Positions 3,074 through 49,584 are shown, counted from the stretch's first letter. The stretch: DNA of 64,000 nucleotides from an uncultured Eubacteriales bacterium (GCA_964556755.1 CAZKXI010000013.1:2009-66008); one strand, 5' to 3'. Notes: a model not told the origin generated them from the sequence alone. Numbers and translations are program-made.

Positions 3074-3103
3074 TTGACAGATCCGCCCCCCACCATATAT
3101 AGT
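3074..3103 (+). promoter_or_regulatory. sigma70-type promoter of the PilZ/LuxD-like/MTase operon
   Basis: TTGACA (3074-3079), 18 bp spacer, TATAGT (3098-3103). The -10 lies within the inverted repeat CCCCAC-CATATATA-GTGGGG. Confidence 0.7.
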
Positions 3104-3221
3104 GGGGCAGGACCGTGTCTCGGATTTTTACATTTTCGAGGCCGCCGGACGACTAAACCTATCCAAGGGGGGCGTGGGAGGCGGAAAGGCGGAGATCATC
3201 GCCGAAAGACGAGGCCTGAGC

Positions 3222-6200: not shown

Positions 6201-6761
6201 CCCGAGTACCGGGTCATCCTCGACTTCAACCGGGCCGTCCGCCTCCTGCTGGGCCGGGAGAAGGGCGACGGCGGATTCCGCCGGCTGGCCTTCCCCGGCG
6301 GTCTTCAGGCGGCGACCCACCTGCCGCTGCGGGCCGGCGTCTACAACAAGATCCTGATGAGCCTGGTCCTCTCCTATATCTTTGATCCGCTCGAGACCCT
6401 GGCCGAGGTCCGCCGCCTGATCGCCCCGGACGGGCGCCTGGTCCTCTCGACGATGCGCCCGGACGCCGACGCCTCGGGCCTCTACACCCGGCTGACGGCC
6501 AAGATCGAGGCCATGGCCGAGGAGGACTTCCCGGCCGACCGGCCCAAGGGCTTGCTGCTGGAATCCCTGCGGTCCTTCCTCAACGACGCCCAGGCCCTCG
6601 TGGAGCTCGAGGAAGCCGGGACCTTCGACTTCTTCGATCCCGAGAGACTGGCGGCTCTGCTTGAGGAAGCCGGCTGGGAGGCCGAGCCGCCCCGGCCCTC
6701 CTTCGGCCATCCCTCCCAGGGCTACCTCGTGGTGGCCCGCCCGAGGCCGGCCCATGGATAA
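3222..6761 (+). CDS. Multidomain protein: degenerate receiver + PilZ + PilZN + PilZ + LuxD-like alpha/beta-hydrolase (acyl-thioesterase/transferase) + class I SAM methyltransferase
   Basis: PilZ motifs RAIMR..NISENG and RSSRR..DISAGG; hydrolase motifs RYDGVRRKGES, TFSLSA (Ser), HDHWVK (Asp), LGHN (His); MTase motifs FLDLGGGTGNF and LVLSYIFDP..DGRLVLS. Start chosen after GAGG at 3211-3214. Confidence 0.8.
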   Translation: MTMKAAEAASADKPVLVIVHGETVKIRALKAAFEADFSVQVASGVREAIGLLGRLPRLDALIIDRPLSTLESGAVLRYIQEMVAQPEAVAKLLLCERRPGGESSALPVNGWVDEVLEEDFDPQRVRRRLRSLLIRKTREKRAIMRTRLGGASVEADIGLVGRVAVDNISENGMYVRAVLPRDYIHPITIRAGASAPLLATGRVVRVDEQAGGTAIQFLLMEEDSRRSLQKLVSEARMEKDLADLRAKYPFLRRDGIVAFDDPDGIDRLLAEAFAGPDTELTVIGVGQRSPIAMRPAGLEPRRLVRLASDGLDGRFKTADAAFVSFQSGYATYSFETAVYRIPEGGRALECLYPRILFYSEKRSSRRAASEEALELEILLPPPFQRILRGPIADISAGGASFLTADREVALLIGTPLLAVRILQGGRVLREVRGEIRNVLKVEDGNGGLLRYGVQFGIGRMAVQTSEMAAFESLREKTRTHDTEKLRTGPRRLSDLAELAKRPPQVIRLENAAGEEIVGLLNTSFELGADPVPVVLIPPAFGKTKETLFALAETIVENFYLKGKPVAVLRYDGVRRKGESFKDPDALEPPFEMIHASVSQGADDIRAILDWLELNPTLKASAVVLVTFSLSALEARVVLRQASYRSKVGGWIACMGTMEFRELMSRVNCGLDLLEQYQLGIDLGVIPILGNLISMVPYASDVVANRVATLDQAREDMAAIDRPVTWIYGEHDHWVKAEFVRDIMSVQVDAPREVISAPLGHNARTSEEALQLFGTITDQVHRILHRDSLRPVPPDKANMEIIRRAEKDRLPARRIKDRKAYWQRYLVGEDRLLGFDCMALSDDYKQLMEDERLALEISPGDRFLDLGGGTGNFVEHLAASGQPLPAVVTIADLIPQAMARASRKLLSRFPGLARDGRFGLLALDAELNRFLPVRRFLAGEIGRFRTLAEERIENLPLASAERIDEAYSSRLQAILRGEAVTPAADRWLRSRFDVPEYRVILDFNRAVRLLLGREKGDGGFRRLAFPGGLQAATHLPLRAGVYNKILMSLVLSYIFDPLETLAEVRRLIAPDGRLVLSTMRPDADASGLYTRLTAKIEAMAEEDFPADRPKGLLLESLRSFLNDAQALVELEEAGTFDFFDPERLAALLEEAGWEAEPPRPSFGHPSQGYLVVARPRPAHG

Positions 6762-9306
6762 GGGAAGCCGGTCCTTCGAGGAGCGGCTCAGCGCCGTCTA
6801 CGACTTGAAGCGGCGGGTCCGCCTGGTCATCCTCCTCAGCGCCATCCTCTACGTGTCCTTCCTGGCCCTGGACGGCATCTACGTCCCGGAGCATTTCGGG
6901 CTGTTCCTGGCCATCCGCCTGGTCGTCCTGGCCGCCCATGGCGCCCTCCTCCTGCTCGTCTCCCGGATGAAGACCAGCCGCGGCTGCGCCAACCTGGCCA
7001 TCGCCCTGACGGCCTTCGACGTGGCCGGCATCGCCATCATGATCCAGTTCATGGGCGGGTTCACGTCCGCTTACGTCCAGGGCCTCTACCTGATCATCAT
7101 GGGCATGGTCGTGGTCGTACCCCTGGCCTTCCGCGAGACGGTCGTCCTGTACGCCACCATCTGGGCTTCCTACGCCGTGCCCAGCTTCTTCAACATGGCC
7201 CGGACCGGCTTCGACTGGCGGACCGTCTTCGCCAACCTCTACTTCCTGACGGCCATCGTCCTGATCGGCGTCTTCGGCTCCTACATCATGGACGCGATCC
7301 GCCGCCGCGAGCTGCGCGGCCGGGTCCAGCTGGAGGAGACCTCGGCCAAGCTCCAGGAGTCCAACCTCAAGCTCATGGCCCTGGACGAGCTGAAGACCCA
7401 GTTCTTCGCCAACGTCAACCACGAGCTGCGCACGCCCCTGACCCTGATGCTGGCCCCCCTGGGGCCGATGATCGAGGGCGGCATGGGCCGGCTGACGGCC
7501 AAGCAGAAGGACACCCTGCTGACCATCCGCCAGAACGGCCTCAAGCTGCTCAAGCTGATCAACAACCTCCTCGACCTGACCAAGCTCGAGGCGGGCAAGA
7601 TGCGGCTGAAGATCAAGTCCGTCGAGTTCGTCGACTTCGTCAACAGCCTGCTGGCCTCGGTCAAGCCCCTGGCCGACCGCAAGTCGATCAAGCTCTACTT
7701 CCAGCACCCCTCGGTCGACCTGCCCCTGCATATCGACCCGGACCAGTTCGAGAAGATCGTCCTCAACCTGCTCTCCAACGCGGTCAAGTTCACGCCGGAG
7801 GGCGGCCGCATCACGGTCTACTTGGACGAGTCCGCCGAGGCCGTCCAGTTCACCGTCGAGGACACCGGCATCGGCATCCCGGCCGCCATGCTGGAGACGA
7901 TCTTCGACCGCTTCTCCCAGGTCGACGGCTCGCTGTCCCGGGCCCACGAGGGCTCCGGCATCGGGCTGTCGCTGGTCCGCGAGCTGGTCCAGCTGCACGG
8001 CGGGCGGGTCCGGGCCGAGAGCGAGATCGGCAAGGGCTCCCGCTTCATCGTCGACATCCTCAAGGGCGACGCCCACTACGGCGAAGAGGTCCTGGACCGG
8101 CGGGTCAGCGACCTGCCCGTGGCCCTCAAGAAGAGGTCCAGCGACGCCGGCCAGCCGCGGGTCCAGGACATCGTCACCGACTTCCGCAAGCTCCAGCTGA
8201 TGGACCTGGAGCGGGAGGAGCTGCGCCCCGGGGAGCAGGCCGCCCCGCGCCGGCACGACAACAACCTGGTCGTGGTCGACGACAATCCCGAAGTCCTCAA
8301 GCTGATGAAGCTTCTGCTGGAGGACGAGTTCGACCTTCACCTGGCCGCCTCCGGCGAGGAGGCCCTGGTCCTGATCCGGGACAAGATGCCGGACGTGGTC
8401 ATCAGCGACGTCATGATGCCGGGCATGGACGGCCACGCCCTGACCCGGCGGATCAAGACCGACGACGCCCTCCGCCACATCCCGGTCATCCTGGTCACGG
8501 CCCGCTCGGGGGCCGAGATGCTCAACGAGGGCATCGAGGCGGGGGCCGACGACTACCTGCCCAAGCCCTTCGACTCCGTCGAGCTGAAGGCCCGCATCCG
8601 CAGCCTGCTCCGGATGCGGCGGGCCGAGGCCGATCTGGCCCTGGCCAACCGCAATCTCAAGATGCGGACATCCGACCTGGTCGAGCGGCAGAGGGACCTG
8701 TTCCTGGCCATGGTCCGCTCGCTCGTCTCGGCCCTGGAGGCCAAGGACAAGTACACCCGCGACCACTCCAGCCGGGTGACGGAGCTGTCGCTGCGCATCG
8801 CCCGCTCCATGAAGCTCGACGAGAGGGAGCTGAACGACCTGGAGATGGCGGCCATCCTGCACGACGTCGGCAAGATCGCCATCCCGGAGCGGATCCTGCA
8901 CAAGAAGTCGCCCCTGACCGAGGAGGAGTTCGCCGTCATCCGCCAGCACCCCGTCATCGGCGAGAACATCCTCAAGCCCGTCGTCGAGCTGCGGCAGATC
9001 GCCCGCATCGTCCGCTCCCACCACGAGCGCTACGACGGCCGGGGCTATCCCGACGGGCTGAAAGGCCAGGCCATCCCGGTTGCGGCCCGGATCATGGCCG
9101 TGGCCGACTCCTACGACGCCATCACCTCGAGCCGCCCCTACCGCGACTCGGAGTCGCACAACTACGCCCTCAAGGAAGTCATCAAGTGCTCCGGCCTCCA
9201 GTTCGATCCGGAGGCCGTGGAGCACTTCATCGAGGCCCTCAAGACCGGCCCCCTGCCGGCCGGCCCGTCCGAGACGGCCCCCTTGTTCGGGAATCTGCCG
9301 GACTGA
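6754..9306 (+). CDS. Membrane sensor hybrid histidine kinase fused to receiver and HD-GYP c-di-GMP phosphodiesterase
   Basis: About six hydrophobic helices; H-box FFANVNHELRTPL; NLLSNAVKFT, DTGIGI, GSGIGL; receiver VVDD/SDVMMP/KPF; HD-GYP motifs HDVGK, HHERYDGRGYP, VADSYDA, RPYR. Overlaps the upstream stop (ATGGATAA). Confidence 0.93.
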   Translation: MDKGSRSFEERLSAVYDLKRRVRLVILLSAILYVSFLALDGIYVPEHFGLFLAIRLVVLAAHGALLLLVSRMKTSRGCANLAIALTAFDVAGIAIMIQFMGGFTSAYVQGLYLIIMGMVVVVPLAFRETVVLYATIWASYAVPSFFNMARTGFDWRTVFANLYFLTAIVLIGVFGSYIMDAIRRRELRGRVQLEETSAKLQESNLKLMALDELKTQFFANVNHELRTPLTLMLAPLGPMIEGGMGRLTAKQKDTLLTIRQNGLKLLKLINNLLDLTKLEAGKMRLKIKSVEFVDFVNSLLASVKPLADRKSIKLYFQHPSVDLPLHIDPDQFEKIVLNLLSNAVKFTPEGGRITVYLDESAEAVQFTVEDTGIGIPAAMLETIFDRFSQVDGSLSRAHEGSGIGLSLVRELVQLHGGRVRAESEIGKGSRFIVDILKGDAHYGEEVLDRRVSDLPVALKKRSSDAGQPRVQDIVTDFRKLQLMDLEREELRPGEQAAPRRHDNNLVVVDDNPEVLKLMKLLLEDEFDLHLAASGEEALVLIRDKMPDVVISDVMMPGMDGHALTRRIKTDDALRHIPVILVTARSGAEMLNEGIEAGADDYLPKPFDSVELKARIRSLLRMRRAEADLALANRNLKMRTSDLVERQRDLFLAMVRSLVSALEAKDKYTRDHSSRVTELSLRIARSMKLDERELNDLEMAAILHDVGKIAIPERILHKKSPLTEEEFAVIRQHPVIGENILKPVVELRQIARIVRSHHERYDGRGYPDGLKGQAIPVAARIMAVADSYDAITSSRPYRDSESHNYALKEVIKCSGLQFDPEAVEHFIEALKTGPLPAGPSETAPLFGNLPD

Positions 9307-17050: not shown

Positions 17051-18031
17051 ATGACATCGACCATGACCCGCATCCTCGTCACCGGTGCCTCGGGCCAGAT
17101 CGGCACCGAGCTTCTCCGAACCCTTCGCCGCCGCCACGGCGACGCCAACGTGCTGGCCACCGACATCCAGCCCCTGGCTGACCCCGAGCTTCGCGGCTCG
17201 GGACCCTTCGAGACTCTTGACGTGACCCAAGCGGCCCGGCTCGACGAGCTGATCGCCCGCTACAAGATCGACACCGTCTACCATCTGGCCGCCATCCTCT
17301 CGGCCACGGGGGAGAAGAATCCCCACCTGGCCTGGAACGTCAACATGGCCGGCTCCTACAACGTCCTCGAGGCGGCCCGCCGGCTCGGACTGTTGAGGGT
17401 CTACATCCCCTCCTCGATCGCCGCTTTCGGCCCCGAGACCCCGCGCGACAGGACGCCCCAGGAGACCGTTCTGCGCCCCAAGACCATGTACGGCCTGACC
17501 AAGGTGGCGGGCGAGCTCCTGGCCGACTACTACGTCCGGCGCTTCGGCGTCGACGTCCGCGGCAGCCGCTTCCCCGGCATCATCAGCCACCAGACCCTGC
17601 CCGGCGGCGGGACCACCGACTACGCCGTGGCCATCTTCTATGAAGCGGTCAAGAGCGACCGCTACACCTGCTTCCTGGGCCCGGACTCCTGCCTGCCGAT
17701 GATGTACATGCCCGACTGCCTGAAATCGGTCATCGACCTGATGGAGGCCGACTTCGCCAAGCTCCGCCACCACGCCGACTTCAATCTGGCGGCCATGAGC
17801 TTCACCCCGGCCGAGCTAGCGGCCGAGATCCGCCGCCACCGGCCGGACTTCCAGATCGCCTACCAGCCCGACTTCCGGCAGGCCATCGCCGACTCCTGGC
17901 CGCGCTCGATCGACGACTCGGCGGCCCGGGAGGAGTGGGGCTGGAAGCCCGACTACGACCTGCCGGCCATGGTCAAGGACATGCTGGACGTCCTCGGCGC
18001 CCGGCATGCCGCCGGCCGCCTGGGCCTCTAG
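17051..18031 (+). CDS. tdh: L-threonine 3-dehydrogenase (extended SDR type)
   Basis: ILVTGASGQIG, HLAAILSATGE, PSSIAAFG, MYGLTK, PGGGTTDYAV, PMMYMPD, RQAIADSWP. True start may be 17063. Confidence 0.8.
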   Translation: MTSTMTRILVTGASGQIGTELLRTLRRRHGDANVLATDIQPLADPELRGSGPFETLDVTQAARLDELIARYKIDTVYHLAAILSATGEKNPHLAWNVNMAGSYNVLEAARRLGLLRVYIPSSIAAFGPETPRDRTPQETVLRPKTMYGLTKVAGELLADYYVRRFGVDVRGSRFPGIISHQTLPGGGTTDYAVAIFYEAVKSDRYTCFLGPDSCLPMMYMPDCLKSVIDLMEADFAKLRHHADFNLAAMSFTPAELAAEIRRHRPDFQIAYQPDFRQAIADSWPRSIDDSAAREEWGWKPDYDLPAMVKDMLDVLGARHAAGRLGL

Positions 18032-20355: not shown

Positions 20356-21348
20356 ATGCCCGTGCTCTTGATCCTATCCGCCCTGGCCTGCTTCGCGGCC
20401 GTCCCTCCCGACGCCGCCGGACCGGTTCGGCCCGCGCACACCTACTCGATCGTGGCCCGGGACAAGGCGACCGGCGACCTCGGCGTGGCCGTCCAGTCCC
20501 ACTGGTTCTCCGTCGGGGCCCTGGTCCCCTGGGCCGAGGCCGGGGTGGGGGCGGTGGCGACCCAGTCCTTCGTCGAGGCCTCCTACGGGCCTCTGGGCCT
20601 GGAGATGATGCGGGCCGGCCGCACCGCCCCGGAGGCCTTGGCCGGCCTTCTGCGGGCCGATAAGGACGAGGCCGTCCGGCAGGTCGGCATGGTCGATGCC
20701 GCCGGCCGGGCCGCTTCCCATACCGGAAGCAAGTGCATCGCCGCGGCCGGGCATTATGTCGGCGACGGCTTCGCCTGCCAGGCCAACATGATGCTCAAGC
20801 CGACCGTCTGGAAGGCCATGGCCGAGGCTTTCGAGTCGACTCCCGGCGAGCTGGCCGACAGGCTGTTGGCGGCCCTGGAAGCCGCCCAGCGCGAGGGAGG
20901 GGACATTCGCGGCCGCCAGGCCGCCGGGTTGATCGTCGTCCGGGGCAAAGCCAGCGGCGCACCCTGGAAGGACCGCATCTACGATCTCCGTGTCGAGGAT
21001 CACCCCGACCCGGTGGGAGAGATGCGGCGCCTCCTGCGGACGGCCAAGGCCTACAACCACATGAACGAGGGCGATGCCCTTCTGACGGCCGGCCGGACGG
21101 CCGAGGCTCTCAAGGAATACAGCCTGGGGATGGAGATCTATCCCGACAACCCGGAGATGCTCTTCTGGCCGGCGGTGACCATGGCGTCGACGGGGAAGGT
21201 CGACGAGAGCCTGCCTCTCTTCCGCAAGGTCTTCGCCCTCGATCCGAACTGGATGGAGCTCCTGCGGCGCCTGCCCGCCGTCGGCCAGTTCCCCGACGAT
21301 GCGGCCCTTCTTCGACGCATCCTGGCCCTCGGCCCGCCCGGACGCTGA
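20356..21348 (+). CDS. DUF1028 (Ntn-hydrolase-like) protein with C-terminal TPR
   Basis: TYSIVARD..LGVAVQSHWFSVG, GAVATQ, QANMM, GGDIRGRQAA, DLRVEDH. Confidence 0.85.
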   Translation: MPVLLILSALACFAAVPPDAAGPVRPAHTYSIVARDKATGDLGVAVQSHWFSVGALVPWAEAGVGAVATQSFVEASYGPLGLEMMRAGRTAPEALAGLLRADKDEAVRQVGMVDAAGRAASHTGSKCIAAAGHYVGDGFACQANMMLKPTVWKAMAEAFESTPGELADRLLAALEAAQREGGDIRGRQAAGLIVVRGKASGAPWKDRIYDLRVEDHPDPVGEMRRLLRTAKAYNHMNEGDALLTAGRTAEALKEYSLGMEIYPDNPEMLFWPAVTMASTGKVDESLPLFRKVFALDPNWMELLRRLPAVGQFPDDAALLRRILALGPPGR

Positions 21349-22181: not shown

Positions 22182-22204
22182 CGGTTCCTCCTCGATCCGC
22201 CGGC

Positions 22205-24598: not shown

Positions 24599-24626
24599 TT
24601 GACATTTCTCGTCATTCGGATATAAT
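24599..24626 (+). promoter_or_regulatory. Consensus promoter for the acs-ACP-kbl-satP operon
   Basis: TTGACA (24599-24604), 16 bp spacer, TATAAT (24621-24626). Confidence 0.8.
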
Positions 24627-24661: not shown

Positions 24662-26365
24662 ATGCCCAACATCGGCGCCTATGACCAAGCGTATGCGGAT
24701 TTCTCCTGGACGATCGCGGAGAAAGAGCTCGAATACGAGCCCGGCTCGGTTCTCAACATCGGCTGGCACTGCTCCGATCGAATCTGCCTGAAAGGCCAGG
24801 GCGGCAAGACCGCTCTTCTCTGGGAGGGCCTGGGAGGAGCCGAGAAGCGATTCACCTACAACGATATCCGGGTGGCCAGCAACACCATCGGCCACTTTCT
24901 GCGGGGTCTCGGGATCACGGCCGGCGACAGGGTCTGCCTGTTCATGGACAAGGTGCCGGAGCTCTACCTGGGCGTCCTGGGCATCCTCAAGATCGGGGCC
25001 ATCGGCCAGCCGCTCTTCTCCGCCTTCGGCGACGAATCGCTGTTCGTCCGCCTGGAAAACGCCGGCACCCGGGCCATCATCACCCAGCGCAAGCATGCCC
25101 CCAAGGTCCGCAAGATCCTGGACAAGCTGCCAGCCCTGGAGCACATCATCATCGTCGACCACGACGGCAAGGCGCCTCTGCAAAGGAAGGAGGTCGCCTT
25201 CAGCCTGGACAAGGCCGCCCCCGTCGAGTCGATCGATATCCACCCGACCCTGGCCGAGTCCCCCTCCCTGCTCCACTACACCTCCGGGACCACCGGCCTG
25301 CCCAAGGGCGTCAAGCACGTCCACTACTCCCTCGTCTCGCAGTACCTGACGGCCAAGTGGGTCCTGGACGTTCGTCCCGACGACATCTATTGGTGCACGG
25401 CCGACCCCGGCTGGGTCACCGGCACCTCCTACGGCATCCTCGGGCCCTGGAGCCTGGGCGTCACCCAATGCGTCATGGACACCGGCTTCTCGGCCGAGGC
25501 CTGGTACAAGTTCATCGAGAAGCACAAGGTCACGGTCTGGTATTCCGCCCCGACCGCGATCCGCTCCCTGATGAAGGCCGGCGACGAGATCATCAAGAAA
25601 TACGACCTGTCGAGCCTGCGGCTCCTGGCCAGCGTCGGCGAGCCTCTCAACTCCGAGGCCGTGCTGTGGTCGGAGCGGGTCTTCGGCCGGGCCTTCCTGG
25701 ACACCTACTTTCAGACCGAGACCGGCTCCATCATGATCACCAACTTCCCGGGCCTGAAGATCAAGCCCGGCTCCATGGGCAAGCCCTTCCCCGGCATCAC
25801 CGCCACCGTCCTCGACCCCAAGACCTACGAGCCCTACCCCGAGCCCGGCAAGATCGGACTCATCGCCATCCAGCCCGGCTGGCCGGCCATGATGCGGACC
25901 TACTGGAACAACGAGGAGACCTACCGCAAGAAGTTCCGGAACGGCTGGTACATGACCGGCGACCGGGCCTCTCTGGATAAAGAAGGCTACTTCTGGTTCA
26001 TCGGCCGCGACGACGACATCATCAACACCGGCGGCCACCTGGTCAGCCCCTTCGAGGTCGAGTCGGCCCTCATTGAGCACCCGGCCGTGGCCGAGTCGGC
26101 CGTGGTCAGCAAGCCCGACCCGATCAACATGGAGGTCGTCAAGGCCTTCGTCACCCTCAAGCCCGGCTTCACCGGCAGCGCCGACCTGGACCTGGAGATC
26201 ATGAACTTTATCCGCAAGAAGCTGTCGCCGCTGGCCATGCCTCAGGAGATCGAGTTCGCCCCTTCGCTGCCCAAGACCCGCAGCGGCAAGATCATGCGCC
26301 GGATCCTGAAGGCCAAGGAGTGGGGCGAGGAGATCGGCGACACGTCCACCCTGGAAGACGATTGA
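24662..26365 (+). CDS. acsA: AMP-forming acetate/short-chain acid-CoA (or ACP) ligase, AcsA-like
   Basis: YTSGTTGLPKG, WCTADPGWVTG, SVGEPLN, QTETG, GRDDD, LPKTRSGKIMRR. Confidence 0.85.
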   Translation: MPNIGAYDQAYADFSWTIAEKELEYEPGSVLNIGWHCSDRICLKGQGGKTALLWEGLGGAEKRFTYNDIRVASNTIGHFLRGLGITAGDRVCLFMDKVPELYLGVLGILKIGAIGQPLFSAFGDESLFVRLENAGTRAIITQRKHAPKVRKILDKLPALEHIIIVDHDGKAPLQRKEVAFSLDKAAPVESIDIHPTLAESPSLLHYTSGTTGLPKGVKHVHYSLVSQYLTAKWVLDVRPDDIYWCTADPGWVTGTSYGILGPWSLGVTQCVMDTGFSAEAWYKFIEKHKVTVWYSAPTAIRSLMKAGDEIIKKYDLSSLRLLASVGEPLNSEAVLWSERVFGRAFLDTYFQTETGSIMITNFPGLKIKPGSMGKPFPGITATVLDPKTYEPYPEPGKIGLIAIQPGWPAMMRTYWNNEETYRKKFRNGWYMTGDRASLDKEGYFWFIGRDDDIINTGGHLVSPFEVESALIEHPAVAESAVVSKPDPINMEVVKAFVTLKPGFTGSADLDLEIMNFIRKKLSPLAMPQEIEFAPSLPKTRSGKIMRRILKAKEWGEEIGDTSTLEDD

Positions 26366-26398
26366 GCGTCCCGAATATCCCCTAAGGAGTCACCCACC

Positions 26399-26650
26399 AT
26401 GGCCGACGAGCTGAAGGACATCGTTCTCAAGTACGTCACCGCCGAGTACCTGGAAGAGGGCAGCGATCCCATCACCTACGACACCCCGCTCATCTCGGGC
26501 GGCATCGTCGACTCCTTCTCCATGGTCTCGCTGAAGCGGTTCCTGGAGAACAAGTACAAGATCAGCATCCCCGATGACCAGGCCACCCCCGAGGCTTTCG
26601 ACTCGGTCGACAAGATCGCCGACCTGGTCCGCCGCTTCACCCAGGCTTGA
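26399..26650 (+). CDS. Stand-alone acyl/aminoacyl carrier protein
   Basis: 83 aa, acidic; GGIVDSFSMVSL phosphopantetheine Ser (codon 26513); AFDSVDKI C-terminal motif. Confidence 0.9.
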   Translation: MADELKDIVLKYVTAEYLEEGSDPITYDTPLISGGIVDSFSMVSLKRFLENKYKISIPDDQATPEAFDSVDKIADLVRRFTQA

Positions 26651-26696
26651 GGCCGCGCCGCGCCGCCGCCGTTCCCCCCGCGCAAGGAGTCTAACC

Positions 26697-27944
26697 ATGT
26701 CCTATAACGACACAACCCGGGCCCTCTACCAGAACGTCCTCAAGGGTCTCCAGGAGGCCGGCCTGTTCAAGCAGGAGCGCTTCATCCACTCCGCCCAGGC
26801 GGCCGACATCGAAGTCGAGTTCCCCTCCGGCGCCTCGGTCAAGCCGGTCATCAACATGTGCGCCAACAACTACCTCGGCCTGTCGAGCCACCCCCAGGTG
26901 GTCCAAGCGGCCCACGAGGGCCTGGACAGCCGCGGCTACGGCATGTCCTCGGTTCGCTTCATCTGCGGCACCCAGGACATCCACCGCGAGCTGGAGCGGG
27001 TCACGACCGAGTTCCTGGGCACCGAGGACACCATCCTCTTCCCCTCCTGCATGGACGCCAACGCCGGCGTCTTCGAGGCCATCCTGACCAAGGACGACGT
27101 CATGATCTCGGACCGCCTGGTCCACGCCTCGCTCATCGACGGCATCCGCCTCTGCTCGGCCATGCAGGACACCTTCAAGCACGCCGACATGGCCCACCTG
27201 GAGCAGAAGCTGGAGATGCACCAGGACCGCCGCCTGCGGCTGGTCATCACTGACGGGGTCTTCTCCATGGATGGCGACACGGCGCCGCTGGACAAGATGG
27301 TGGCCCTGTGCGAGAAGTACAATGCCATGCTCCTGGTCGACGACTCCCATTCGACCGGCTTCATCGGCAAGACCGGCCGCGGGACGCACGAGAAGTACGG
27401 CGTCCTGGGGAAGATCGACGTCATCACCACGACCTACGGCAAGGGCCTGGGCGGGGCGACCGGGGGCTGCGTCTCCGGCCGCAAGGAGCTGGTCGAGATG
27501 TGCCGCCAAAAGGCCCGGCCCTATCTCTTCTCTAATTCCATCGCCCCCATGGTTGTCTCCGGCGTCCTCAAGGTCTTCGAGATCCTCAACGCCTCGACCG
27601 AGCGCCGCGACAAGCTGGAATGGAACGCGGCCTATTGGCGCAAGGGCCTGCAAGAGGCCGGCTTCGTCCTCAAGGAAGGCGACACGCCCATCGTCCCGGT
27701 CATGCTCTTCAACGCCAAGCTGGCCCAGGACTTCTCCCGCGGCCTCTACGAGGAGGGCATCTACGCGGTCGGCTTCTTCTTCCCGGTCGTGCCCCAGAGC
27801 CAGGCCCGCATCCGAACCCAGCTGTCGGCCGGGCACGAGAAGCACCATCTCGACCGGGCCTTGGATGCCTTCATCAAGGTCGGCAAGAAGCTCGACATCC
27901 TGGGCAAGACGCGCCAGGAGATCATCGACCGCTTCGGCATGTAG
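26697..27944 (+). CDS. kbl: Glycine C-acetyltransferase (2-amino-3-ketobutyrate ligase)
   Basis: [45 protein letters not shown] (PLP Lys), [14 protein letters not shown]. Confidence 0.9.
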
Positions 27945-27952
27945 GAGGACCC

Positions 27953-28528
27953 ATGGACGGCAAGCTCGCCAATCCCGCCCCCCTCGGCCTGATGGGCTTC
28001 GGCATGACCACGGTCCTGCTGAACATCCACAACGCCGGCTTCTTTCCGGTCAGCGCCATGGTCCTGGCCATGGGCATCTTCTACGGCGGCCTGGCCCAGG
28101 TCATCGCCGGGATCATGGAGTACAAGAAGGGCAACACCTTCGGGACGACGGCCTTCACCTCCTACGGGCTGTTCTGGATGACTCTGGTCGCGACCTGGGT
28201 CATCCCCGGGACCAACGCGCCCAACGGCGGGGCCACCCCGGCCCCCTACTTGGGCTTCTACCTGGCCCTCTGGGGCGTGTTCACCTTTTTCATGTGGCTG
28301 GGGACCTTCAAGAAGAACCGGGCCCTCCAGTTCGTCTTCCTCAGTCTGACCGTGCTCTTCTTCCTCCTGGCCGCCCGCGACTGGCTCGGCTCCCCCGCCA
28401 TCGGGCGCTTGGCCGGCTTCGAAGGCATCGTCTGCGGCCTGTCGGCGATCTACCTGGCCATGGCCGAGGTTCTCAACGAGGCCAAGGGGCGGACGTTCCT
28501 GCCGATCGGCGAGATCAAGAAGGCCTGA
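27953..28528 (+). CDS. satP: Acetate uptake transporter SatP/YaaH (GPR1/FUN34 family)
   Basis: [35 protein letters not shown]. Confidence 0.93.
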
Positions 28529-28563: not shown

Positions 28564-29820
28564 TCAGAAGAAGTAATAGACGGCGGCGAGCAGCCGCAGG
28601 TTCGCAACCCGAGAGTCGCCGCTCACCCGGCCTCCCGCGTCGGTTGGGCCGTAGGCGGCGGAGGTGTATTCAACCTCTCCCGCCAAGCGGACCGGGCCCG
28701 CGTTGAGCACGATGCGGGGCGCGACGCGGTAGAGATCCTTAATGTCGAAGCCCCGGCCGTAGACGGGGCCCCCAATCGTTCCGAGAACGCCCAGGTTCCG
28801 GCTCCAGCCGAGAAAAAGCCCGGCCTGGATCTTGCGGCCGTTCGTCGCCACATCGGCCCAGCCCGACAGGACTTCCATGGCGGCATAGTCGACCAGGCCG
28901 CGCTCCGCGTCCAGGACCGACTGAACCGCGTAGCCTCCCAACATGGTCAGGTGGTAGGGATTCTGTCCGTAGAAAGCCTCCAGCTTGAGAGTCAGGCCTT
29001 TGCTCCGGGCCTTGAAGAAGGCCATCCCCGACCAATCGCCGAGGCGCGCCTCGTCCATGTATCCGGACGCCGTCTGCAAGCGCGGCCGCAGCCGCTTATA
29101 ATCCCCGGCTGCTCCGATCAGGAGCTCGCCGCCGGCCCGCGTCTTCCAAGCCCGCTGGAGCTTCAGGACCAGCTCGGGAAAGGCGGCGTTGCGGGCGTAG
29201 GAGGTCCCGCCGCCGTCGGGGCCGGCGGAAGAGAAGTCTCGCTGGGACAGGGCCGCGGCTTGGAGGCTCCAGCGGCCGAAGGACCGGGTCAGCCGGATCT
29301 GGGGGGAACGGTTGAAGGGCTGGAACGGGGCGCCCGTGTTGAAGGAGACGACGTCCGGGAAGCTTTCGACCACGAACAGGGGGTGCCAATACTGCCCGAC
29401 AAGCAGCTCGGTGGCCTTCCACTCCAGCTTGAGGAAGGCGTGGCGGAGGCGGAATCCGTTGATGTCGGCCTCGGACGTCCCGAAGAACTCGGCCTCGATC
29501 AAGCCGGACGTCTTGGCTCCGAGGGCATCCGGCCCCGTGATCTTGCCCTGCAACCGGGTCTGCAGGGACAGAATGTGAAAGCTCGAGGCGGCGTTCAGAT
29601 CCCGCCCCTCCGGGTCCGGGACGACCGGCTTGGGATAGAGAAGGAAATGGCCCTCCCGCAGGCTGACGGTCTGGCGCGAGTCGTAGAGGATGTCGGTCTT
29701 CACGAAGCCGGAGAAGGAGATGCCGAAAGCGGGCTTGTCCTGGGCCGCGCCCGGGACGGCCCAGGCGGCCGAGGCAGCCGCCAAGGCCAGGAGAAGCCAA
29801 GGCCGGCGGATGGATATCAT
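28564..29820 (-). CDS. Outer-membrane porin, DcaP-like
   Basis: Signal peptide; FSGFVKTDILYD, QTRL, IEAEFFG, RLRHAF, GQYW; C-terminal YYFF. Confidence 0.7.
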   Translation of the reverse strand: MISIRRPWLLLALAAASAAWAVPGAAQDKPAFGISFSGFVKTDILYDSRQTVSLREGHFLLYPKPVVPDPEGRDLNAASSFHILSLQTRLQGKITGPDALGAKTSGLIEAEFFGTSEADINGFRLRHAFLKLEWKATELLVGQYWHPLFVVESFPDVVSFNTGAPFQPFNRSPQIRLTRSFGRWSLQAAALSQRDFSSAGPDGGGTSYARNAAFPELVLKLQRAWKTRAGGELLIGAAGDYKRLRPRLQTASGYMDEARLGDWSGMAFFKARSKGLTLKLEAFYGQNPYHLTMLGGYAVQSVLDAERGLVDYAAMEVLSGWADVATNGRKIQAGLFLGWSRNLGVLGTIGGPVYGRGFDIKDLYRVAPRIVLNAGPVRLAGEVEYTSAAYGPTDAGGRVSGDSRVANLRLLAAVYYFF

Positions 29821-29833
29821 CGCTCGTCCCTCC

Positions 29834-32530
29834 TCAGTCCAGATCCTTCTCGGCCTCGACCACCGAGCCGCCGGGATCGGTCGTCAGCCGGAAGCCCCTC
29901 TTCTCGAAGACCGCCACCATGCGAGGATTGTCGGAGTTCGTCACCGCGGTGATCCGGCGGACGCCCCAGTCCTTGGCGATGGCCAGACAATGATCGGTCA
30001 GCAGGCCGCCCAGGCCCTGGTCCTGCCAGGGATCGCCGACCAGGACGGCGTACTCGGCGGTCTCCCGCATCGGATCGGCGATCAGCCGGCCGACGCCCAG
30101 CAGCCGCCGCCGGCCCGCCTCCTCGACCTCGGCGACGATGGCCATCTCCCGGTCGTAGTCGACGTAGCAGTACCGGACGGCCGTGTCGTGGCTGGACCAA
30201 GCCGGGAAGCCCCGAAAGCGCATGTAGATCGACTCCCGGGAGCAGAGGCCGAGAAGCTCCAGCCAGAGCGGTTCGTCCTCGGGCTTGATCGGCCGCAGGA
30301 GGCACGGCGAACCGTTCGGCAGGGACGTCGCTCGAACCGCGTCCTGGGGATAGGGACGCAGGGCCAGATGGCGATAGGAAGCCCGCTCGGCCCGGCTGAA
30401 GCCCACGGCCGCGCGGTCGACCACGATCCGGGCGTCCAAGGCCGTGGCGCCTTCCGGAGTGACCAGGAAGGGATTGATGTCCAGCTCGGCGATCTCGGGG
30501 AATTCGGCGGCCAGGTAGGAGAGGCGGATGAGGGCCTCGACCAATCCGGCGACATCCAGGGCCGGCTTGCCCCGATACCCGTTCAGCAGCGGCCAGATCT
30601 TGAGCGACTCGAGCATGCGCCGGGCCAGGCGCTCGTTGAGGGGCGGAAAGCCCAGGGCCCGGTCGCCGATCAGCTCCGCCGCCGTGCCGCCCCAGCCGGC
30701 CATGAGCACGGTTCCGAAGACGGCGTCCTTCTTGGCCCCCAGGATCAGCTCCAGGCCGTCGCCGTAGCGGATCATCGGCTGGACGGTGACGCCGCGGAGG
30801 CGGGCTTGCGGCCGAGCGGCCGCGGCCGCGGCCAGGAGCCGGGCGAAAGATTCCCGGACGGCGGCCGCGTCGGCCAGCCCCAGGGCGACGCCGCCGACGT
30901 CGGTCTTATGGGTGATGTCGGGCGAGTCGATCTTGAGGACGACGGGATAGCCCATGGCGGCCGCGGCCGCGACCGCCTCCTCGGCCGTCGAGGCCGCGAC
31001 CGGGACGGCCACCTTCATACCGCAAGCCCGCAGGAGGGCTTTGGAATCGGCCTCCGAGAGGATCCCTTCCGAGGCGGCGAAGACCGGCCCGAAGCGGGCC
31101 CGGAGGGCCTCCCGATCCATGGGGAACTCGACGGGGACGTCCTTGGGCGTCTCGTAGAGGCTGTCAAGGTTCCGGGCGTAGCTGACCAGGGTCATGAAGG
31201 CCCGCACCGCCTGCTCCGGAGTCGGGAACGTGGGGATGCCGGCCTCGTTGAGGATGGCCGTCGCCTCGGCCATCGCCAGGCCGCCCATCCAGGCCGCCAG
31301 AACGGGCTTGTCCGATTCCGCCGCCGCGGCCGCCGTCTCCTTGGCCATGGCCGTCGGATTGGTCATGGCCTGAGGAGTGACGATCAGAAGCAGGGCGTCC
31401 ACGTCCGGGTCTTTCAAGAGGATACGGGCGGCCTTGGCCAAGCGCTTGGAGTTCGCGTCGCCCAGGACATCGACGGGATTGCGGCGCGACCAAGCGGGAG
31501 GCAGGACCTCGTCCAGGGCGGCCCGGGTCGACTCCCCGAGCCGGGCCGGCCGGCCCTGGGCGGCGACCAGGGCATCGGTGGCCATGACGCCCGGCCCGCC
31601 CGCGTTCGTGATGATCGCCAGGCGATCGCCCCGCGGCGATTTGGGTCGGGCCACCAGCTCGGCCGCGTCGAAGATCTCGCCGATGTCGAGGACCCGGACC
31701 AGCCCCGCCCGCCGGAACGCCTCCTCGTAGACGGCGTCTTCCGAAGCCAGGGCGCCGGTGTGGGAGAAGGCCGCCTCGGCCGACTCGGGGAACCGGCCCG
31801 CCTTGTAGACGATGAGCGGCTTGGTCCGGGCGAAGGCCCGGGCCGCGGTCATGAATCGGCGGGCGTCCTGGACGGACTCGACATAGAGCAGGATGGCCCG
31901 GGTCCCCTCGTCCTCGCCGAAGTAGTCGATGAGCTCGGCGAAGCCCACGTCCAGGGCGTTGCCGACCGAGACGAAATGGGAGAAGCCGACCTTCTCCTGC
32001 CGAGCCCAGTCCAGGACGGCGGTGCAGAGCGCCCCCGACTGGGAGATGAAGGCCACGTCGCCCGCCTTGGGCATGGCCGCGGCGAAGCTGGCGTTCAAGC
32101 GCCGGCCCGGCGAGATGAAGCCGAGGCAGTTGGGACCGAGGATGCGCAGGCCGGGGAACGCGGCGGCCTGGCTCCGGACGGCGGCCTCCAGATCCACTCC
32201 TTCGGGGCCTGTCTCGCGGAAGCCGGCCGAGACGATGATCAGGCCTCCGACCCCGGCCCGGCCGCACGCGCCGACCCAGTCCGGGACTTCCGCGGCCGGG
32301 GAGCAGATGATGCCCAGGTCCGGGACGGCCGGGAGAGACGTCAAGGAGGGCTGGCAGGGGATGCCGAGGACCGCCTCGTGGGCGGGACTGACCGGATAGA
32401 CCACGCCCGGGAAGCCGCCCAAGACGAGGTTGGAGAGGATCTTTCCGCCGACGCTCTTGGGATTGGGCGTGACGCCGATGAGAGCGATGCGGCGGGGCTG
32501 GAACAGTCGCTCCAGGTTATGGATGTTCAT
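29834..32530 (-). CDS. Acetate-CoA ligase (ADP-forming)-GNAT fusion; Pat/Pka-type protein lysine acetyltransferase
   Basis: LFQPRRIALIG, LGPNCLG, SQSGA, SHTGAL, NAGGPG, NPVDVLGDA, KIDSPDITHKTDVGGV, ELDINP; C-terminal GNAT LRPIKPED..WQDQGLG. Confidence 0.9.
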   Translation of the reverse strand: MNIHNLERLFQPRRIALIGVTPNPKSVGGKILSNLVLGGFPGVVYPVSPAHEAVLGIPCQPSLTSLPAVPDLGIICSPAAEVPDWVGACGRAGVGGLIIVSAGFRETGPEGVDLEAAVRSQAAAFPGLRILGPNCLGFISPGRRLNASFAAAMPKAGDVAFISQSGALCTAVLDWARQEKVGFSHFVSVGNALDVGFAELIDYFGEDEGTRAILLYVESVQDARRFMTAARAFARTKPLIVYKAGRFPESAEAAFSHTGALASEDAVYEEAFRRAGLVRVLDIGEIFDAAELVARPKSPRGDRLAIITNAGGPGVMATDALVAAQGRPARLGESTRAALDEVLPPAWSRRNPVDVLGDANSKRLAKAARILLKDPDVDALLLIVTPQAMTNPTAMAKETAAAAAESDKPVLAAWMGGLAMAEATAILNEAGIPTFPTPEQAVRAFMTLVSYARNLDSLYETPKDVPVEFPMDREALRARFGPVFAASEGILSEADSKALLRACGMKVAVPVAASTAEEAVAAAAAMGYPVVLKIDSPDITHKTDVGGVALGLADAAAVRESFARLLAAAAAARPQARLRGVTVQPMIRYGDGLELILGAKKDAVFGTVLMAGWGGTAAELIGDRALGFPPLNERLARRMLESLKIWPLLNGYRGKPALDVAGLVEALIRLSYLAAEFPEIAELDINPFLVTPEGATALDARIVVDRAAVGFSRAERASYRHLALRPYPQDAVRATSLPNGSPCLLRPIKPEDEPLWLELLGLCSRESIYMRFRGFPAWSSHDTAVRYCYVDYDREMAIVAEVEEAGRRRLLGVGRLIADPMRETAEYAVLVGDPWQDQGLGGLLTDHCLAIAKDWGVRRITAVTNSDNPRMVAVFEKRGFRLTTDPGGSVVEAEKDLD

Positions 32531-34347: not shown

Positions 34348-35102
34348 CCTTCCGCGTCCGCGGCCTCCGCTTCCGCCGGCCCCGCTTCGAGCTGGACGTG
34401 CCGGCCCTGACGATCCCGGCCGGGCGGCTGACCGCCGTCGTCGGCCCCAATGGGGCCGGCAAGACGACCCTGCTCCGCTGCCTGGCCGGCCTGCTGCCCG
34501 TGCCGCCCGGAGTCGTGAGCCTGGGCGGCGAGGACCTGGCTGGACTGGCCGCGGGCCCGCGAGCGCGCCGGCTGGCGTTCGTCCCGCAGGAGCATGCCGC
34601 GGCCTTCAACTACGCCGTCCGCGACTTCATCCTTATGGGCCGGGCGCCCTATCTGGGGCTCTTCGGCTCGCCCGGCGCCGACGACGAGGTCCGGGCGGCC
34701 GAAGCCCTGGCCTTCGTCGGCTTGCCGGGCTACGCCGATCGCCCCTTCCTCGAGATGAGCAGCGGCGAGCGGCGCCTGATCCTCATCGCCAGGGCCTTGG
34801 CCCAAGACACACCCGCCCTTCTTCTGGACGAGCCGGCGACCTTCCTGGACCCGCGCCACGAGTCCGAGGTGATGGGCCTTCTTGGCCGCCTGGTGGCGGA
34901 GCGGGGCAAGACCGTCCTGGTCACGCTGCACAATCTGGACATGGCGGCCCGCCTGGCCGATGTCTTGGTCGTCCTGCGATCCGGCCGGATCGCCGCCTGC
35001 GGCCCGCCCCGCGAGGTCCTCAGCGAGGATCTCCTGGCCCGGGTCTACGAGATCCCGATGCGGATCCTGGACCACGAGGGCCTCACCTTCATCGTCCGCT
35101 GA
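34344..35102 (+). CDS. Iron-chelate/cobalamin ABC transporter ATP-binding protein
   Basis: GPNGAGKTT, MSSGERR, LLLDEP, VTLH; GTGA overlap with the permease. Confidence 0.9.
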   Translation: MTFRVRGLRFRRPRFELDVPALTIPAGRLTAVVGPNGAGKTTLLRCLAGLLPVPPGVVSLGGEDLAGLAAGPRARRLAFVPQEHAAAFNYAVRDFILMGRAPYLGLFGSPGADDEVRAAEALAFVGLPGYADRPFLEMSSGERRLILIARALAQDTPALLLDEPATFLDPRHESEVMGLLGRLVAERGKTVLVTLHNLDMAARLADVLVVLRSGRIAACGPPREVLSEDLLARVYEIPMRILDHEGLTFIVR

Positions 35103-35232
35103 AGCCACGCGGGCCGGAGGGGCTTGTCTTTCCCCCCCGATCGTCTATAATGGTCGCGTTCCGAACAGCGGAACCCCCCCCTCCCGCCAGTGTCCTTCAC
35201 GGAGTGACGGGTCCGCCGCCGCAAGGAGACCC

Positions 35233-37026
35233 ATGAGATCGAACAGGCTGAAGATACGCTACCTCAACGGCAGCCGGCTCTACCACGCCTTCCTGGCCGG
35301 AGGGGACGCGGTCATCAACGATCAAGTCTTCCTCAATCGCATCAACGTCTTCCCTGTTCCCGACGGGGACACGGGGACCAATATGGCTTCCACCTTTCGG
35401 GCCATCGCCGAAGGGGCCCGGTCCGGCCGCTCGATCCGGGAGACTCTCCGCTCCATCGCCGACGCCGCCCTGCACGGCGCCCAGGGCAATTCGGGCCTGA
35501 TCCTGGCCCAGTTCCTCTACGGACTCAGCCGCGAAGTCGGCCACGAATGGAGGCTGACGACCAAGTCTTTCGGCGAGTCCGTACGGAGGGCCGCCCAGCA
35601 CGCCGCCCGGGCCATCCTCCACCCGGTCGAAGGGACGATGATCACGGTCATCCGCGACTGGGCCGAGTCCGTGTACCAGAAGCGGCTGCACACGGCCGAC
35701 TTCGAGGAGCTCCTGGCCGAAGCCCTGCCCGCGGCCCGCCGGTCGCTCCGCGAGACGCCCCGCAAGCTGGCCGTCCTGGCCAGGGCCGGCGTCGTGGACG
35801 CGGGGGCCAAGGGATTCGTCGACTTCTTGGAAGGCATCCTCCAGTTCATCAAGCGCGGGCGCCTGCGCCGCGATCCCCAGCCCGGACCGGCCTGGACACC
35901 GGCCGAGGCCAAGACGCCGGCCCGCGACAAGTCCCTCCACAACCGGTACTGCGCCGAGGCTCTCCTGGCCGGCCAGGATCTGTCGCCCGAGGCCGTCCGG
36001 GCCGTCGTCGACCGCTTCGGGGATTCGGCCGTCGTGGCCGGCTCGGAGGACCGCATCCGCGTTCACGTCCACACCAACGAGCCGGACGGGCTCTTCGACC
36101 AGCTCAAGGATCTCGGCGCCATCCGCCAGATCAAGGTCGATGACATGCGCAAGCAGCACGAAGCCGCCTGGGCCCCCCGGTCCAGGGTGGCCGTCATCAC
36201 GGACTCGGCCTGCGACCTGCCGCAGGAGATCATGGACGAGCGGCAGATCCACTTCGTGCCCATGTCGATCCAATGGGGCGAGCAGCTCTTCCTGGACAAG
36301 CTGACCATGAAGGCGGACCGGTTCTACGACCGGCTGCAGGCGGAGGACGTCCAGCCGACGTCGGCCGTCCCGGCCCTCAAGTCCTTCCAGAACGCCCTCT
36401 CCTACCTGGCCGGCCACTACGACTCGATCATCGCCGTCAGCCTGTCCTCCGGCCTGTCGGGCGTCCATGACGCCTTCCGCAAGGCCGCGGAAAGCCTGCC
36501 GGGCCGCAGGATCAGCGTCTTCGACTCGCGCTCCATCTCGGCCGGCGAGGGACTGATCGTGGCGCGGGCCACCGAGATGGCCCTGGCCGGCGAGGGGCAC
36601 GAGACGATCGCCCGCGGCATCGAGTCCTGGACGGCCAAGACCCACCTGCTCATCGACGTCAGGACGCTCAAGCCTCTCATTCGCGGCGGGCGCGTCAGCC
36701 CGGCCAAGGGCTTCCTGGCCAGACTGCTCCACATCCTGCCTCTCCTGTCGCTCGACGGGAGCGGCAAGGCGGCTCCCTTCGGCAAGGCCTTCAGCCGCCG
36801 GGGCGCCATGGCCGGCATCCTGGCTCGAGTCGCCGAGCTGACGGGCCGGGACAAGCTGTGGAATTACGCGGTCGTTCACGCCAAGAATCCCGGCCGGGCG
36901 AGCGCCTACCGGGACAGGCTGACGGCCTTGCTCGGCCGACCGCCGGCTTACATCATGGATGTCTCCCCCGTCATCGGGGTCCACTGCGGCGTCGGCGCCG
37001 TGGCCGTCGCCCTGCTGATGGAATAA
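35233..37026 (+). CDS. DAK2 (FakA-like) + DegV (FakB-like) fatty-acid kinase fusion
   Basis: NVFPVPDGDTGTNM, GAQGNSG, VEGTMITV, VVDAGA, VHVHTNEP; DegV VITDSACDL, TSAVP, SSGLSG, GVHCG. Confidence 0.9.
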   Translation: MRSNRLKIRYLNGSRLYHAFLAGGDAVINDQVFLNRINVFPVPDGDTGTNMASTFRAIAEGARSGRSIRETLRSIADAALHGAQGNSGLILAQFLYGLSREVGHEWRLTTKSFGESVRRAAQHAARAILHPVEGTMITVIRDWAESVYQKRLHTADFEELLAEALPAARRSLRETPRKLAVLARAGVVDAGAKGFVDFLEGILQFIKRGRLRRDPQPGPAWTPAEAKTPARDKSLHNRYCAEALLAGQDLSPEAVRAVVDRFGDSAVVAGSEDRIRVHVHTNEPDGLFDQLKDLGAIRQIKVDDMRKQHEAAWAPRSRVAVITDSACDLPQEIMDERQIHFVPMSIQWGEQLFLDKLTMKADRFYDRLQAEDVQPTSAVPALKSFQNALSYLAGHYDSIIAVSLSSGLSGVHDAFRKAAESLPGRRISVFDSRSISAGEGLIVARATEMALAGEGHETIARGIESWTAKTHLLIDVRTLKPLIRGGRVSPAKGFLARLLHILPLLSLDGSGKAAPFGKAFSRRGAMAGILARVAELTGRDKLWNYAVVHAKNPGRASAYRDRLTALLGRPPAYIMDVSPVIGVHCGVGAVAVALLME

Positions 37027-49455: not shown

Positions 49456-49584
49456 GGCCGCTCCTCCGTTCGATGGGCGTCGACCTATTCTACAGGGTTG
49501 CGGCCGGCTTGTAAATGAGGCGGGGATGTGGTCTACTGGCCCTTCCGGGCGCCTCGCGCCCGTTCCCCTGTGGAGGTTTCACCC

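Follow-up and report, generated by a model that had tools for sequence, protein, structure and literature searches.

Acetate ligases of the Acs type and glycine C-acetyltransferases of the Kbl type are textbook coenzyme A (CoA) enzymes. Why, then, does a gene for a small stand-alone acyl carrier protein (ACP) lie between an acs-type and a kbl-type gene in a stretch of 64,000 nucleotides from an uncultured Eubacteriales bacterium (GCA_964556755.1 CAZKXI010000013.1:2009-66008)? A preliminary description of this stretch, the whole of which we call the window, listed a promoter followed by genes for an AMP-forming ligase, an ACP, a Kbl and an acetate permease. All of these elements are present, in that order. 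The ligase, carrier and Kbl-type genes, here acs', acp and kbl', belong to a unit whose near-unchanged conservation in hundreds of uncultured anaerobic bacteria suggests a so far undescribed route, independent of CoA, that would join threonine, glycine and acetate. We discuss below the evidence for such a route, how it might operate, and what else could explain the gene order.

Organization and transcription of the operon

The promoter-like site and the four genes that follow it are located in the window as follows (aa, amino acids):

24599..24626, + strand: sigma-70-type promoter-like site, TTGACA-16 nt-TATAAT, 12/12 hexamer matches, 35 nt 5' of the acs' start codon
24662..26365, + strand: acs', 567 aa, short-type (B. 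subtilis AcsA-like) AMP-forming acetate ligase
26399..26650, + strand: acp, 83 aa, stand-alone carrier protein of the type II peptidyl carrier protein (PCP)/DltC kind
26697..27944, + strand: kbl', 415 aa, pyridoxal phosphate (PLP)-dependent alpha-oxoamine synthase of the glycine C-acetyltransferase clade
27953..28528, + strand: satP, 191 aa, SatP/AceTr acetate (succinate) channel or permease, with its ATG at 27953

The four genes are co-oriented, and each has a strong ribosome-binding site. The gaps between them are short: 33 nt between acs' and acp, 46 nt between acp and kbl', and 8 nt between kbl' and satP. The sequences AAGGAG or GGAGGA precede acp, kbl' and satP, and the Shine-Dalgarno sequence of satP overlaps the stop codon of kbl'. 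A longer kbl open reading frame (ORF) starting at 26574 was rejected, since it overlaps the acp gene and its start is not used in relatives. The promoter-like site stands out from background, as shuffled sequence averages 0.6 sites even at a far looser threshold of 9/12. No terminator-like site was found on the + strand inside the operon, and an Rfam scan of the whole window returned no RNA family, and hence no riboswitch or leader that would account for the operon. Metatranscriptome contigs from anaerobic digesters match parts of acs', kbl' and satP exactly; they are too sparse and mixed to prove that acs-acp-kbl is transcribed as one unit. In a relative, a contig of 799 nt extends over kbl-satP.

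The window has a GC content of about 69%. Protein and genome searches place the closest relatives of its carrier protein in metagenome-assembled genomes (MAGs) of Candidatus Aminicenantes (Acidobacteriota), and sludge and wastewater metagenomes hold DNA nearly identical to the window.

Linkage of the genes in other genomes

The gene order was followed in a survey of neighborhoods anchored on the carrier protein alone, 125 loci in total. One genome per GTDB species was scanned; at least 579 genomes carry the carrier, and the best 80 loci were examined. A metagenome scan with a divergent member of the carrier family added 45 loci. Counts are given over eligible loci only, so that the denominators differ:

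Kbl', immediately downstream of the carrier gene: 93/93
Acs', upstream of the carrier gene: 91/93
AcpS (holo-ACP synthase), directly upstream of acs' on the same strand: 70/88
Tdh (L-threonine 3-dehydrogenase), immediately upstream of the acpS-acs'-acp-kbl' array and co-oriented with it: 8/76 (e.g., L049, L095, L106, L110 and L127)
Canonical Kbl, within 5 kb: 17/62
SatP, directly downstream: 13/84
Pat-like gene, in the locus: 11/62 (adjacent and on the same strand in L034 and L091)

The order acs-acp-kbl, present in essentially all of the 125 loci, is beyond chance, and the survey, which had been suggested in the preliminary description, bears out the association of the three genes. The flanks of the module vary among loci. 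The hosts fall into at least ten phylum-level groups: Aminicenantes, other Acidobacteriota, Zixibacteria, Bacteroidota, Ignavibacteria, Delongbacteria, KSB1, Chloroflexota, Elusimicrobia and Bipolaricaulota. The tdh gene is co-operonic with the module in several phyla, and the fullest array reads tdh-acpS-acs'-acp-kbl'-satP-kbl (L110). All hosts found are uncultured anaerobes; in a second homolog search, made to find a cultured host, every named match was a MAG.

The acpS gene emerged from de novo clustering of neighboring genes. It encodes a holo-ACP synthase of 124-137 aa that scores 92 bits against TIGR00516 (cut-off 59.8). Recurring neighbors are limited to acpS, tdh, kbl, satP and pat, and clustering in the 80 genome loci revealed no conserved consumer or thioesterase within 10 kb on either side of the carrier gene. 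Nothing else conserved nearby could provide or use the cargo of the carrier, so the unit looks self-contained. From the locus counts, the core is acpS-acs'-acp-kbl', and SatP is an accessory outside it. Imported acetate, which was inferred in the preliminary description, is thus not what defines the system.

In L054, L057 and L065, where Acs or Kbl seemed to be missing, the assemblies are frameshifted, and in one other locus (L060, 2618-7923) an insertion of about 5 kb separates acs' from acp. Genes for MntP, MgsA, ABC proteins and others near the module represent lineage-specific synteny.

The three central proteins also evolve more slowly than their neighbors. In genome pairs whose AcpS proteins are less than 50% identical (mean 44.7%), the identity is 75.7% for Acs', 72.4% for ACP and 79.4% for Kbl'; in the pairs that carry them, the mean is 63.8% for Tdh and 66.9% for canonical Kbl. 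When the same genome pairs were compared in a separate analysis, the identity was 84.6% for Kbl' and 66.5% for its canonical paralog. Such values fit joint strong purifying selection on three proteins that may interact. Recent transfer of the whole operon is unlikely, because acpS would then be equally similar. A slow, coordinated rate of this kind is unusual for three adjacent genes (operons of L011-L135).

The carrier protein

The predicted site of phosphopantetheine attachment, Ser39, lies within an invariant GGIVDSFS motif, and 43 other positions are also invariant in the family. An AlphaFold2 model (pLDDT 84) has helices at residues 2-17, 39-53 and 70-81, with Ser39 opening helix II (39-53). 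The top structural matches in a Foldseek search are PigG (template-modeling score, TM, 0.86), PltL (0.81), DltC and a glycyl-carrier protein (TM 0.73-0.86 overall). All of these are stand-alone carriers, and most are loaded by stand-alone adenylating enzymes. The top PDB match by sequence is 6cxt. The ranking by sequence and by fold relates the protein to type II PCPs and DltC, not to the AcpP of fatty acid synthesis. Going by the model, then, the 83-aa protein is a carrier protein. The window protein itself has no match to the Pfam family PP-binding (PF00550) at E <= 0.001; some members of its family have a precomputed match.

The family is large and compact. It comprises at least 8000 clusters at 90% identity in the protein database, the best 120 of which are 79-99% identical to the query, and at 50% it is essentially one cluster before generic carriers start. 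Two carrier genes stand in tandem between acs' and kbl' at one locus (L129, 6004-6503), their products being 81% and 58% identical to the window protein.

Two leads on the carrier were abandoned. Its top NCBIfam match, NF052616 ("ACP for OlsHI"), is weak, and a connection to OlsH/OlsI was dropped because the score of 58 bits is far under the cut-off of 130; the lead was weakened further by a paper on planctomycete ornithine lipids, in which OlsH requires neither ACP nor CoA. Longer homologs that appeared to be fusions of the carrier to Kbl or Acs (P0146, P0170 and P0176) are frameshifted gene calls, and another (P0217) is an unrelated carrier-hydrolase.

The ligase and the oxoamine synthase

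Acs' scores 748.6 bits against NF003313 (acetate--CoA ligase; PRK04319 short type), above the cut-off of 729. The closest solved Acs is the short-type, CoA-using enzyme 9g79 (E 1.3e-169). The acetate pocket is retained: V310, T311, V386 and W414 of the S. enterica enzyme correspond to V252, T253, I379 and W407, and the catalytic, acetylatable Lys609 corresponds to K543. These residues are conserved in 63-70 of 70 clade members, and the Gly of the pantetheine tunnel is also kept (G458). The differences are point substitutions in the A8 hairpin, with no insertion of the fatty acyl-AMP ligase (FAAL) type seen in Acs'. In 70/70 clade members Leu460 replaces an Arg (R526 in S. enterica, R528 in M. 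thermautotrophicus) that is found in all three solved Acs enzymes aligned, 9g79 included. Two further changes in the hairpin, V to D450 and G to S462, are likewise clade-invariant.

The replaced Arg is highly conserved in Acs and stabilizes the thioester-forming conformation; in the M. thermautotrophicus enzyme, R528A cannot be saturated with CoA, and R528K and R528Q lower kcat 130-326-fold (PMC10455477). The effect of R526A in Salmonella Acs, found by Reger et al. and quoted in PMC10455477, is smaller, with a loss in kcat of about 2-fold and a 4-fold increase in Km(CoA). The differences in the ligase sit in the element that builds the thiol-acceptor site, and Acs' is proposed to be an acetate:holo-carrier ligase.

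Kbl' scores 563 bits against TIGR01822 (cut-off 493) and matches solved Kbls with E values of 1e-130 to 1e-135. Models of serine palmitoyltransferase (Spt) give 233-308 bits against cut-offs of 500-670 (one pair being 308 vs 640). The cavity and catalytic residues of C. necator KBL are N52, V81, H138, S187, D212, H215, T243, K246, L274, F275 and R370 (PMC9814548). All are retained in 68/68 Kbl' sequences, as N57, V86, H143, S190, D215, H218, T246, K249, L277, F278 and R373; the set includes the PLP-Lys, the PLP-stacking/catalytic His, the Asp/His pair, and the Arg and Asn for the glycine carboxylate. Compared with 18 neighboring canonical Kbls and 3 solved ones, Kbl' has five clade-invariant substitutions: S to P116, F to M119, A to V135, N to V142 and L to C269. 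P116 and M119 fall in the SCFDAN loop, and V142 adjoins the catalytic His. These three are present in 67-68 of 68 Kbl' sequences, and the canonical residue in 19-21 of the 21 canonical Kbls.

The second, canonical Kbl encoded within 5 kb in 17/62 loci implies that Kbl' is not simply the housekeeping copy. Neighboring Kbls of this kind score 568-602 bits against TIGR01822 and are thus more canonical than Kbl'; the upstream-type paralog is 60-61% identical to E. coli Kbl, vs 53% for Kbl'. We propose that Kbl' acts as an acetyl-carrier:glycine C-acetyltransferase or, in reverse, as a thiolytic lyase of 2-amino-3-ketobutyrate (AKB). In both enzymes the residues for acetate and for glycine/AKB chemistry are retained, and the differences are elsewhere.

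A proposed acetyl relay

These features can be combined in a model in which the acetyl group travels between Acs' and Kbl' on the holo-carrier and not on CoA. We give the model an even chance of being correct. AcpS would make the holo-carrier on Ser39, and three reversible reactions would follow:

Acs': acetate + ATP + holo-carrier <-> acetyl-S-carrier + AMP + PPi
Kbl': acetyl-S-carrier + glycine <-> AKB + holo-carrier
Tdh of the short-chain dehydrogenase/reductase (SDR) type: AKB + NADH <-> threonine + NAD+

Overall, the relay would amount to threonine + NAD+ + AMP + PPi <-> glycine + acetate + ATP + NADH, running either way. A private carrier would separate the acetyl flux from the cellular pool of acetyl-CoA and CoA, and the ratio of acetyl-carrier to holo-carrier, hence the direction, would be set by the enzymes of the module alone.

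The window contains a candidate for the dehydrogenase:

17051..18031, + strand: tdh, SDR-type L-threonine 3-dehydrogenase, 6.6 kb upstream of the operon

Its product matches PDB 2yy7 with E 4e-107, engineered TDHs with up to 2e-135 and other TDHs with 1e-102 to 1e-111 over the full length, vs only about 1e-13 for sugar epimerases. Tdh is likely to be the partner enzyme that interconverts threonine and AKB. The preliminary description, which had assigned the last step to this gene, was right about the enzyme; as to location, it lies outside the operon. The broader suggestion of that description, that the ACP is a working part of an Acs/Kbl pathway, is supported in part and gains considerably from the linkage, acpS, the co-operonic tdh, the second Kbl and the invariant substitutions. 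Gene identities, linkage, conservation, residues, fold and transcription are observed; from there we infer that Acs' acylates the carrier, that Kbl' uses the product, and which way the flow runs.

Several observations weigh against the relay. Curated HMM cut-offs still class both enzymes as an ordinary acetate--CoA ligase and an ordinary glycine C-acetyltransferase. R584, one of the residues that contact the 3'-phosphate of CoA, is still present in Acs' (R518). Loss of the R191/R194 CoA-phosphate loop was dropped as a signature of Acs', since it is uninformative: the CoA-using short AcsA 9g79 lacks the loop too. An R-to-L change in the A8 motif is not known to mark carrier-loading ANL enzymes, and many such enzymes keep Arg at this position. 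L074 and L089, the only true cases, carry acp-kbl' without an adjacent ligase. In the 64-kb window acpS was not found, and the one serving the window carrier is presumably encoded elsewhere in the genome; the window tdh, 6.6 kb away, belongs to another transcription unit. Finally, what a protein carrier would gain over CoA is argued only.

In which direction would the relay run? The preliminary description favored condensation of acetate with glycine to yield threonine. The evidence for this direction is no stronger than for the alternative given there, threonine catabolism. A canonical Kbl in the same operon slightly favors catabolism, as it would be futile in the anabolic direction. Catabolism also suits the proteolytic, fermentative lifestyle, the window encoding several peptidases, and AMP-forming Acs reportedly runs in reverse in Syntrophus. 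Assimilation is favored by what Acs usually does, by the annotation of SatP as an uptake transporter and by the presence of a regulator of the Pat type. On balance we lean slightly to catabolism, by which these anaerobes, fermenters of amino acids, would conserve ATP while SatP would let acetate leave the cell. Tdh and Kbl' would then pass the acetyl group of AKB to the carrier, and a reversed Acs' would make acetate and ATP from acetyl-carrier, AMP and PPi. That substrate-level phosphorylation from threonine proceeds in many phyla through a protein-tethered thioester, with no CoA intermediate, is a possibility that we put forward tentatively.

Alternative explanations

The same relay could be run for assimilation, which we regard as somewhat unlikely. 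SatP would import acetate, Acs' would charge the carrier, Kbl' would make AKB and Tdh would reduce it to threonine; a highly acetylated private carrier, maintained at the cost of ATP going to AMP and PPi, would push the unfavorable Claisen condensation. AMP-forming Acs enzymes normally activate acetate, NCBIfam labels SatP as an acetate uptake transporter, a Pat-like acetyltransferase is encoded nearby in the window and in 11/62 loci, Tdh is linked to the module, and the digesters inhabited by the organism are rich in acetate. Moreover, Marcus and Dekker are said to have reversed E. coli Tdh and Kbl in vitro in 1993 to make threonine. The canonical, CoA-dependent Kbl encoded in or next to the operon in 17/62 loci, however, would, if co-expressed, cleave newly made AKB, in a futile cycle that amounts to plain Acs, and SatP is found in just 13/84 loci. 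More doubtful is the view that Acs' and Kbl' are ordinary CoA-dependent enzymes and that the carrier is unrelated or regulatory, so that there is synteny without shared chemistry. Both proteins exceed curated equivalog cut-offs, the known catalytic and substrate residues (the acetate pocket and Lys in Acs', and those of Kbl) are intact, and R526A has a mild effect in Salmonella Acs (Reger et al., as quoted in PMC10455477). This view does not readily account for near-universal linkage across at least ten phyla with varied flanks, for the co-location of acpS, for the joint conservation of Acs', ACP and Kbl' beyond that of the rest of the operon, for the duplication of a canonical Kbl alongside Kbl', or for clade-invariant substitutions in both enzymes; no other conserved candidate partner of the carrier is found nearby.

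The half-reactions proposed here would be identical if acetyl-carrier, made by Acs' out of acetate and by Kbl' out of AKB derived from threonine, went to an unlinked consumer, such as lipid or polyketide-like synthesis (as a starter unit) or another use of an acetyl donor. The presence in the operon of acpS, the phosphopantetheinyl transferase of fatty acid synthesis, suits this scheme, as does the precedent of trypanosomes, in which threonine is the main acetyl source for lipids (PMC4034587). On the other side, the 80 genome loci show no conserved gene for a consumer within 10 kb on either side, and the carrier resembles type II PCPs and DltC rather than AcpP; we consider convergent supply improbable. 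Ligase, carrier and oxoamine synthase together are also a common layout in natural-product pathways, and the product could be an aminoketone or a pyrazine-type signal or secondary metabolite, formed from aminoacetone after decarboxylation of AKB or from another pair of short acid and amino acid. TDH/KBL operons do yield aminoacetone-derived pyrazines (PMC9814548). Against this, the determinants for acetate and for glycine/AKB are strictly conserved, the extreme conservation and broad spread over phyla are typical of core and not of secondary metabolism, and no tailoring or export genes are conserved, which makes a product of this kind very improbable.

Other genes in and around the module

The assignment of satP is straightforward, with 274.6 bits against NF038013 (acetate uptake transporter, AceTr_1; cut-off 50) and 144.7 bits against PF01184. 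Other genes of the window include:

29834..32530, - strand: Pat-like protein, ADP-forming-ACS-like domain and C-terminal GNAT domain, convergent to the operon
28564..29820, - strand: 418-aa protein without a match in Pfam or NCBIfam, its N-terminus resembling a signal peptide and its C-terminus reading ...YYFF
34882..37026, + strand: 714-aa fusion of FakA domains (Dak2, FakA-like_M) with a DegV (FakB-like) fatty-acid-binding domain
3102..6761, + strand: 1219-aa protein with a PilZ domain and a C-terminal methyltransferase domain
6661..9306, + strand: hybrid histidine kinase-receiver-HD_5 (HD-GYP-like) protein
20356..21348, + strand: DUF1028 fused to TPR repeats, flanked by an aminopeptidase-like gene (18652-20292) and an ORF (21360-22304) that is spermidine synthase-like by eye only
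49528..52020, + strand: 830-aa Lon-like protease of the LonB/LonC type (AAA_32, LonB lid, LonC helical, Lon_C)

The Pat-like protein scores 505 bits against TIGR02717, under the cut-off, and its GNAT domain matches NF058543 at residues 738-888. Pat restrains acetate activation in Salmonella. The window protein is a probable lysine acetyltransferase that would regulate the ligase through Lys543, only loosely linked to the module. Homologs of the 418-aa protein (47-64% identity) adjoin the Pat-like gene in Aminicenantes and Bacteroidales loci; the protein may be an uncharacterized outer-membrane protein. A FakA-DegV fusion of 592 aa also occurs a few kb downstream of the module in Aminicenantes loci (L001-L004). 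The domains of the PilZ-methyltransferase and HD-GYP-like proteins suggest a signaling pair linked to cyclic di-GMP.

Upstream of the module, 12-16 loci have genes for methylglyoxal synthase (NF003559, 217 bits) and an MntP-like protein; in the Saccharicenans-type loci L029, L036, L037 and L053 these precede acp by about 6 kb. Aminoacetone from AKB can be oxidized to methylglyoxal. The recurrence is probably lineage synteny.

Comparison with known systems

A literature search on Acs with ACP and Kbl, on acetyl-ACP with glycine C-acetyltransferase, and on threonine in Aminicenantes or Saccharicenans found no description of the module, and databases annotate its parts as ordinary enzymes. Protein tethering has so far been associated with lipid, polyketide and cell-wall pathways. 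If the relay is real, textbook CoA enzymes have been rebuilt around a carrier, primary C2 and amino-acid metabolism would be separable from the CoA pool, and Acs' would show how, in nature, a few substitutions can change the thiol acceptor of an acyl-CoA synthetase. At least 579 species-level genomes and thousands of protein clusters from metagenomes contain the module. All come from uncultivated lineages (Aminicenantes, Zixibacteria, Bacteroidales, KSB1 and others), which are dominant in anaerobic digesters, sediments and wetlands. The module could thus be a quantitatively relevant, now mis-annotated, route in anaerobic turnover of amino acids and acetate.

The preliminary description compared the layout to bacterial Spt modules, which in Caulobacter and Sphingomonas consist of Spt, a dedicated ACP and an acyl-ACP synthetase. 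The comparison holds for the layout: an ANL-family ligase, a small dedicated carrier and a PLP-dependent alpha-oxoamine synthase are encoded together in both. It does not extend to the enzymes. Here the synthase is a Kbl, far under the Spt cut-offs, and the ligase is an Acs with an acetate-sized pocket (V/T/I/W) whose Trp would limit it to acetate. Glycine would be used without enzyme-catalyzed decarboxylation, and the predicted product is a central metabolite, not a lipid base.

A precedent among ANL enzymes for a carrier in place of CoA is provided by FAALs, which load holo-ACP and do not accept CoA (PMC8460268). Their substrates are long-chain acids, and CoA is kept out by a specific insertion and by the pocket, whereas no such insertion is seen in Acs'.

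In primary metabolism, ATP-dependent acetylation of a protein-bound thiol is carried out by CitC and MadH, for citrate lyase and malonate decarboxylase. These are not homologs of Acs or of ANL enzymes, and their carriers use 2'-(5''-phosphoribosyl)-3'-dephospho-CoA, not phosphopantetheine installed by AcpS. The closest relatives of the carrier itself are in PltF-PltL, PigI-PigG and DltA-DltC, which also pair a free-standing carrier of about 80 aa with a separate ANL enzyme. PltL, PigG and DltC carry proline or D-alanine for secondary metabolites or the cell wall, in contrast to the acetate cargo and the PLP-dependent Claisen acceptor enzyme predicted here.

In chemistry the module compares with the canonical Tdh-Kbl pathway and Acs of E. 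coli and C. necator (PDB 1fc4, 7bxp), for which the predicted reactions are the same and the catalytic and substrate residues are conserved. The module differs from them in the carrier gene between acs' and kbl', with acpS upstream, in the invariant Arg to Leu change in the ligase and the five invariant changes in Kbl', and in the coexistence of Kbl' with a canonical Kbl in many loci.

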